64,000 nucleotides of DNA from Escherichia coli. Lineage in GTDB: Bacteria; Pseudomonadota; Gammaproteobacteria; Enterobacterales; Enterobacteriaceae. Location of the stretch: the NCBI RefSeq assembly GCF_024700885.2, contig NZ_CP117016.1; one strand, 5' to 3'. Positions 25,013 through 25,363 of the stretch are shown in pieces (position 1 is the first letter of the stretch; each line of letters begins with the position of its first letter). Below the pieces are notes generated by a model. That model was given only the letters and a program-made list of their open reading frames with translations. It was not told where the DNA came from and did no database searches. The translations under genes were made by a program, and so were the position numbers.

Positions 25013-25100
25013 TATCTGCAATCAGGCTGGCGCGAGTTCTGTTTTTTTTCGGGCCGGTCTGATTTTCACATACTGTAAGGTTATTGCATATTCCTCCTAG

Positions 25101-25174
25101 TCTCTTCCCATTTTGACCCAGTTCTTCCCATAAATATCTCACTTATTCCCTGTCATTTATCTCAAGTCTAATCA
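25101..25174. repeat. putative transposase-binding repeats at prophage right end (three units; element ends TCA at 25174)
   Basis: tCTTCCCAttt, tCTTCCCAtaa and aTTCCCtgtCAttta within 70 bp of the point where cbtA-like host homology begins. Confidence 0.4.
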
Positions 25175-25363
25175 GTGAACTTTCTCGTGGAAAAATACGC
25201 GCTGGTGCGTACCGACCAGCCGGGATTCAGCGCCTGTACCCGCTCTCAGTTAATAAACAGCATCGATATCCTCCGGGCTCGCAGGGCGACCGGCCTGATG
25301 ACCCGCGACAATTACAGAACGGTAAATAACATTACCCTGGGTAAGTATCCGGAGGCGAAATGA
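25175..25363 (+). pseudogene. cbtA: 3' fragment of cbtA/ykfI/ypjF-family toxin gene (truncated by prophage insertion)
   Basis: Translation NFLVEKYALVRTDQPGFSA...ILRARRATGLMTRDNYRTVNNITLGK matches my recollection of the CbtA C-terminal half; GTG start with no RBS and in-frame stop 2 codons upstream. Confidence 0.5.

Follow-up and report, generated by a model that had tools for sequence, protein, structure and literature searches.

The described systems closest to the locus analysed here are the transposable phages BcepMu, B3 and Mu, together with the CbtA/CbeA toxin-antitoxin module of the K-12 element CP4-44. The genome of BcepMu (NC_005882) has the same order as the Escherichia coli prophage that is the subject of this analysis, with mor-gemA-...-tnpB-tnpA in an early operon that reads outward, then the repressor, lysis genes, a Mu-like head and a P2-like tail; P2-like sheath and tube genes are annotated in BcepMu and are common to the E. 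coli prophage. The termini of BcepMu also start with TGA and carry the motif G[AC]GATAWWT at positions 12-20 and 35-43, as in the E. coli prophage. On the other hand, the two elements differ in host genus, in the semi-essential early genes and in the immunity/moron region, and at the far end BcepMu has an acyltransferase, whereas the E. coli prophage has a Gin-like invertase and an invertible tail-fibre segment. By the BcepMu convention the mor end is the "left" end; in the stretch studied here it is the right-hand end.

Pseudomonas phage B3 (Beetrevirus) has an inverted early operon and terminal mor-gemA genes, as does the E. coli prophage. B3 is a siphovirus, unlike the E. coli prophage, which we take to be a myovirus. 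The inverted early operon is the B3-like organisation of transposable phages (PMC5977238), and the 6-bp duplication and TG-CA ends described for B3/Tn552-family transposases and for B3-type phages, whose transposase is Tn552-related (PMC8705779), are likewise shared by B3 and the E. coli prophage. For BcepMu itself, the duplication length is given neither in the KS10 paper nor in PMC5977238.

Coliphage Mu has in common with the E. coli prophage that it is temperate and transposable, about 37 kb long and inserted at many loci, and that it encodes Mor/C, GemA, Gam, a Mu-like portal and head genes and a Gin-type invertible tail-fibre segment. It differs in having MuA, a 5-bp duplication and the repressor, not mor, beside an end, whereas the E. 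coli prophage has an rve/Tn552-type transposase, a 6-bp duplication and an inverted early operon. In Mu, mor is located about 9 kb from the end.

In the type IV toxin-antitoxin module of K-12 CP4-44, cbeA is upstream and yeeW downstream of cbtA. The same arrangement is found in E. coli strain MLI114, but there the toxin open reading frame (ORF) is broken after codon 64 by a 37 kb prophage. CbtA is a protein of 124 amino acids in which R15 (MreB) and F65 (FtsZ) are separable determinants (PMC5624674). No specific report of a prophage inserted in cbtA came up when the literature was searched.

The window (the whole stretch of DNA that was analysed, 64,000 nucleotides) comes from the minus strand of MLI114 record NZ_CP117013.1, and a window coordinate x is converted to the record coordinate as 2057716 - x. 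The following features define the prophage end and its host flank:

1-25174: right-hand 25.2 kb of a BcepMu-like (Bcepmuvirus) transposable prophage (PhiKM identity, BcepMu gene order, mapped ends).
25173-25174, + strand: terminal CA dinucleotide of the prophage (same terminus at seven independent chromosomal insertions and in the PhiKM record).
25175-25180, + strand: right copy of the 6-bp target-site duplication GTGAAC (junction comparison with strain MLI109).
25175-25363, + strand: cbtA 3' fragment, residues 63-124, a pseudogene remnant (nucleotide identity, Pfam, PGAP).
25360-25554, + strand: yeeW (DUF5983), intact, overlapping the cbtA stop codon (ATGA) (PGAP, translation).
25567-26351: CP4-44-type remnants, namely a DUF957 gene, a transposase fragment and an EutP/PduV-like fragment (PGAP).

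To the right, the last prophage bases are ...TCTAATCA, ending at position 25174. The far prophage end maps to record position 2069661 (about window -11945), and the junction there reads ...GATGCGGTGAAC|TGATGCGCCGCGCGATAAATG..., with cbtA codons 1-64 and an intact cbeA on the host side, followed by the remainder of a CP4-44-like island (yeeS/T-like genes, agn43). Between that end and the window are 11.9 kb of prophage that contain tail genes, the invertible tail-fibre segment, the invertase and the far end itself. In strain MLI109 the site is uninterrupted (GATGCGGTGAACTTTCTC), and the two MLI114 junctions rebuild the MLI109 cbtA exactly, with one short direct repeat left over. The two junctions and the MLI109 empty site therefore define an element of 37,120 bp in total, which starts with TG, finishes with CA and is flanked on both sides by the direct repeat GTGAAC; the left copy of the repeat is outside the window, directly before the far prophage end. 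The insertion is of the transposition type, with a 6-bp staggered target. Our main reading, to which we assign a probability of about 95%, is that a BcepMu/B3-type phage inserted by DDE transposition at cbtA codon 64/65 in MLI114 and split the toxin gene.

An earlier sequence-only reading of this DNA had placed the prophage end at the TCA that finishes at 25174, and the same terminus (...AATCA) is indeed found at the seven insertions and in the PhiKM record. It had also recognised the C-terminal half of a CbtA/YkfI/YpjF-family toxin from 25175 onward. This agrees with the Pfam result, in which the ORF at 25175-25363, translated as (V/M)NFLVEKYALVRTDQPGFSAC...ITLGKYPEAK, matches CbtA_toxin (PF06755) at model positions 63-112 of 112 (E=1.1e-21), and with its 100% identity to intact cbtA. 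The yeeW-like gene and CP4-44-type remnants expected next were confirmed as yeeW and the DUF957 gene, with tmaR/yeeX and then yeeA beyond the remnants, in the same order as in MLI109 and as is usual where CP4-44 ends. Finally, its proposals that a transposable prophage had split the toxin gene and that the far boundary would lie beside the cbtA 5' half and the antitoxin gene are supported by both junctions and by the intact MLI109 site.

Comparison with 5,426 complete E. coli genomes (megablast) revealed that cbtA-yeeW identity begins at window 25173-25175, and that the matched cbtA 3'/yeeW stretch is 100% identical in many strains and 99.9% identical in K-12. When combined, the two cbtA fragments are identical to the intact cbtA of MLI109. 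The GTGAAC repeat represents cbtA codons V63-N64. The 5' fragment encodes 64 amino acids, and a TGA from the phage terminus stops its reading at once; the 3' fragment, counted from the GTG of the repeat, encodes 62. Instead of a complete 124-aa CbtA ORF, MLI114 thus has residues 1-64 and residues 63-124 on separate ORFs, both of which are already pseudogenes in the RefSeq/PGAP annotation (the 3' fragment is labelled "incomplete, missing N-terminus"). An intact cbeA is located 88 bp upstream of the 5' fragment, the same layout as in MLI109.

The established chemistry of DDE transposases suggests the steps at the phage ends. TnpA and the TnpB ATPase would assemble on the repeated terminal G[AC]GATAWWT sites (positions 12-20 and 35-43 of each end), and TnpA would link the 3'-OH at the terminal CA to the two target strands, cut at points 6 bp from each other. 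Gap repair would then fill the staggered cut and leave the 6-bp duplication. The 3' fragment is cut off from its promoter and ribosome-binding site, and no Shine-Dalgarno-like sequence was found before 25175 (TCTCAAGTCTAATCA). Residue numbering was checked, and the 5' fragment keeps R15 and the 3' fragment F65, placing the MreB and FtsZ determinants on separate fragments. Both cbeA and yeeW are intact. Most likely, the toxin is inactive, with cbtA dead and cbeA orphaned; a loss of CbtA toxicity would follow. A cbtA-yeeW query matched five places in the MLI114 chromosome (megablast), and by this measure the strain has several paralogous CbtA-family modules. Because of these paralogues, loss of this cbtA copy is unlikely to show a phenotype.

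A further reading, which is compatible with the main explanation and not exclusive of it, is that read-through of the early operon across the prophage end expresses the 62-aa CbtA C-terminal peptide (GTG start, F65) and yeeW. If true, read-through on induction would couple phage induction to interference with host cell division. There is an in-frame GTG at 25175, and F65 is the third residue of the fragment. A simple scan detected no + strand intrinsic terminator between mor and the prophage end, and a weak sigma-70-like site (TTCACA-16-CATATT, 25065-25092, + strand) points outward to cbtA'-yeeW. We nevertheless regard this reading as very improbable: the GTG is not preceded by a Shine-Dalgarno-like sequence, half of a 124-aa protein may not fold or bind FtsZ, and the phage inserts at many unrelated loci. 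In addition, there is no sign of selection, because the cbtA insertion is unique to one strain.

This uniqueness also bears on the quality of the assembly. The mor/cbtA junction was found in MLI114 alone among the 5,426 complete genomes (megablast), as it could be if the join were an assembly artefact. Two precise junctions at the same point of one gene, with an exact 6-bp duplication of the length typical of this phage, would not result from a mis-join, and an artefact is very improbable. On the main reading, the insertion looks recent, strain-specific and neutral; the signs of a recent event are the perfect duplication, flanks that match other strains at 100% identity and a junction that none of the other 5,426 genomes contains.

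To define the phage type, we considered the kinship and order of the prophage genes. Aligned to Escherichia phage PhiKM (PQ738613.1), a member of the genus Bcepmuvirus, the 25 kb of prophage in the window shows 99.6% identity with 100% query coverage. The genes most relevant to transposition and to the mor end are:

18224-19993, + strand: TnpA, a DDE (rve) transposase of the Tn552/B3/BcepMu family (tblastn, PHROGs, Pfam).
20004-21170, + strand: TnpB-like transposition ATPase (ExeA family), directly downstream of tnpA (phrog_296 "DNA transposition protein", 1.5e-93; PGAP; position of BcepMu gp08).
24202-24651, + strand: gemA (Mu gp16 family) (PGAP "gp16 family protein"; phrog_286, 9.8e-59; syntenic with BcepMu gp02 GemA).
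24623-25012, + strand: mor, late-transcription activator and final gene before the prophage end (Pfam Mor PF08765, 1.5e-43, full length; phrog_532; position of BcepMu gp01).

TnpA is 67.8% identical to BcepMu gp09 and 56% identical to B3 TnpA over at least 98% of its length (tblastn), and it belongs to phrog_310 (transposase, 3.7e-147). The tblastn search covered 50,697 phage records and gave 69 matches; the best 30 of these 69 were listed individually, together with an organism summary. The matches listed were Pseudomonas B3-like and Burkholderia BcepMu-like phages and a few others, and coliphage Mu was neither among these 30 nor in the organism summary. In Pfam, the only TnpA match is rve, and no Mu-transposase domains were detected. 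NCBIfam matched none of Mor, GemA, YeeW and the CbtA fragments, and its matches to TnpA, from IS481/IS21, were all below threshold. The early operon reads outward, from repressor-proximal genes through tnpA, tnpB, gam and gemA to mor at the very end, and the divergent side of the prophage carries the lysis, Mu-like head and P2-like tail genes.

We then examined how the same phage is inserted elsewhere. Its end sequence is present in 640 of the 5,426 E. coli genomes, at many different interrupted genes; the E. coli BcepMu-like prophage thus occurs in about 12% of complete genomes. Six further insertions were resolved at base level, in lplA, yehY, dmsC, yehK/yehI, a TonB-dependent receptor gene and an ABC ATPase gene. 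All seven independent insertions have the same TG...CA termini, and each is flanked by an exact direct repeat of 6 bp, namely GTGAAC (at cbtA), TCAATG, GCAGGG, CGATGG, GCTGGT, AATAGC and AGTAAT.

These data bear directly on the sequence-only reading, which had assigned the boundary to a Mu-type end and had expected a 5-bp duplication. A classical Mu-type phage with a MuA transposase could seem plausible from Mor, GemA, Gam and the Mu-like head genes, a length of about 37 kb and the TG...CA ends. Neither of its two hallmarks was found: the duplication is 6 bp in seven of seven insertions, and the transposase, with rve as its only Pfam match and coliphage Mu missing from the listed matches (30 of 69) and the organism summary, is not of the MuA family. 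Moreover, the early operon is inverted with mor terminal, as in BcepMu and B3 (PMC5977238). A classical Mu-type (Muvirus) phage is ruled out by the 6-bp duplications and the transposase family, and both of these expectations had to be given up. Judged by its rve transposase, the TnpB ATPase, TG...CA ends with 6-bp repeats, many insertion sites and terminal mor-gemA, the prophage is a BcepMu/B3-type transposable phage with a Tn552-related transposase.

On the Mu model, a terminal mor would be odd, and position 25174 might then mark a deletion or rearrangement in a degraded Mu-like prophage that by chance lies beside a cbtA remnant. The oddity has another source, since mor is at the very end because the element is of the BcepMu/B3 type and not of the Mu (MuA) type, and mor is the terminal gene in BcepMu and B3 as well. 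The same terminal nucleotides at seven independent loci and in the PhiKM record, the perfect flanking 6-bp duplication and the exactly rebuilt empty site rule out a truncated Mu prophage with a deletion junction. That the two cbtA pieces are remnants of two unrelated paralogues was also considered and rejected.

The mor end of the BcepMu/B3-type prophage was compared with other ends, six in all, with the following features:

25095-25174, - strand: terminal ~80 bp of the mor end, presumed transposase-binding region (comparison of six ends).
25155-25163, - strand: terminal site 1, GAGATAAAT, inward positions 12-20 (end comparison).
25132-25140, - strand: terminal site 2, GAGATATTT, inward positions 35-43 (end comparison).
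25103-25111 and 25123-25131, + strand: two exact TCTTCCCAT repeats (repeat search; conserved placement relative to BcepMu and B3 mor ends).

Read inward, the mor end has TG at 1-2, G[AC]GATAWWT at 12-20 and 35-43, and GGG at 25, 46, 56 and 66. TGA at 1-3 and both G[AC]GATAWWT sites are present at both E. coli ends and both BcepMu ends. B3, whose end motifs are partly kept, has a related site at 12-20. GGG at 25, 56 and 66 occurs at the mor end in both the E. coli phage and BcepMu; the E. coli phage also has GGG at 46, and B3 has it at 45 and 55. The conserved GGG triplets are the CCC cores of three repeats and of GACCC at 25115-25119. There are exactly two copies of TCTTCCCAT, whose CCC cores correspond to GGG at inward 66-68 and 46-48, and a third, degenerate copy, TTCCCTGTCAT, is located at 25146-25156.

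The sequence-only reading had noted three related repeats, among them CTTCCCAttt and CTTCCCAtaa. The repeats are real and their CCC/GGG cores are conserved in BcepMu, but the best motif is not CTTCCCA itself. It is G[AC]GATAWWT, which shares bases with the second and third of the noted repeats in their 3' parts. The chance of an exact 9-nt repeat within ~200 nt is roughly 0.08 (a back-of-envelope figure), weakly significant by itself; the terminal repeats are judged real because their placement is conserved at both ends and in BcepMu and B3. Similarly, G[AC]GATAWWT occurs five times in the whole window against 4.3 expected, and since there is no enrichment the argument rests on positional conservation. 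On the end comparison, G[AC]GATAWWT is the best-conserved end motif and the strongest inverted-repeat signal. Its conservation supports a function, and a reasonable hypothesis is that these are putative TnpA binding sites.

Taken as a whole, the cbtA insertion matches published biology and the existing annotation, and is a case of a known phage type behaving in its ordinary way. It represents one further insertion of a widespread E. coli BcepMu-like prophage, and the gene that was hit is a non-essential cryptic-prophage toxin gene with paralogues. Two by-products could aid the automatic delimitation of such prophages: the seven-site demonstration of 6-bp duplications and TG...CA ends in this E. 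coli prophage family, and a precise map of the terminal motifs common to the E. coli prophage and BcepMu.

Several differences among prophage copies were also observed. The MLI114 prophage is 37,120 bp long versus 37,530-37,566 bp in other strains, and its tape-measure gene has 2,691 bp versus 3,213 bp in strain AVS0750. At window 147-429 and farther upstream, outside the window (L002 5288-8851 in all), PGAP annotates one small ORF as frameshifted and the tail-assembly gene as interrupted by an internal stop. Judging from these annotations, the MLI114 copy may be defective.

Beside the far end, a Gin-like recombinase gene and an invertible tail-fibre/fibre-assembly segment occupy record 2065751-2069583 (L002 13752-17584). 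Gene orientation and arrangement in the fibre segment differ among MLI114, R3, AVS0750 and GN04275, which suggests that G-segment-type switching is active.

Gene content varies between copies in the stretch that separates the lysis genes from the early operon (window 13567-16317). MLI114 and PhiKM have genes there for a Dam-type methylase and a 118-aa HTH repressor, along with two PHROG families whose function is not known, whereas the equivalent region of R3, AVS0750 and GN04275 encodes an "ABC transporter ATPase", a 153-aa HTH protein and two different hypothetical proteins. This pattern suggests at least two immunity types. PADLOC detected no known defence system in the variable prophage region and picked out only the Dam-type methylase and an HTH repressor.

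The PhiKM GenBank record (PQ738613.1) is a circularly permuted partial assembly in which the invertase end is absent. At ~20200-20577 of this record, the terminal ...TCTAATCA is followed by non-phage DNA annotated as "Fe2+ ABC transporter permease". Probably this is host sequence joined to the packaged genome, or else a prophage flank, and its presence may be taken as a hint of replicative transposition and of headful packaging with host DNA.

On the host side, the annotation gives a frameshift in agn43 (the Ag43 autotransporter gene), which belongs to the CP4-44-like island of MLI114 (L002 24120-27238), and further out the island contains degraded IS110 and ISL3 transposase genes.
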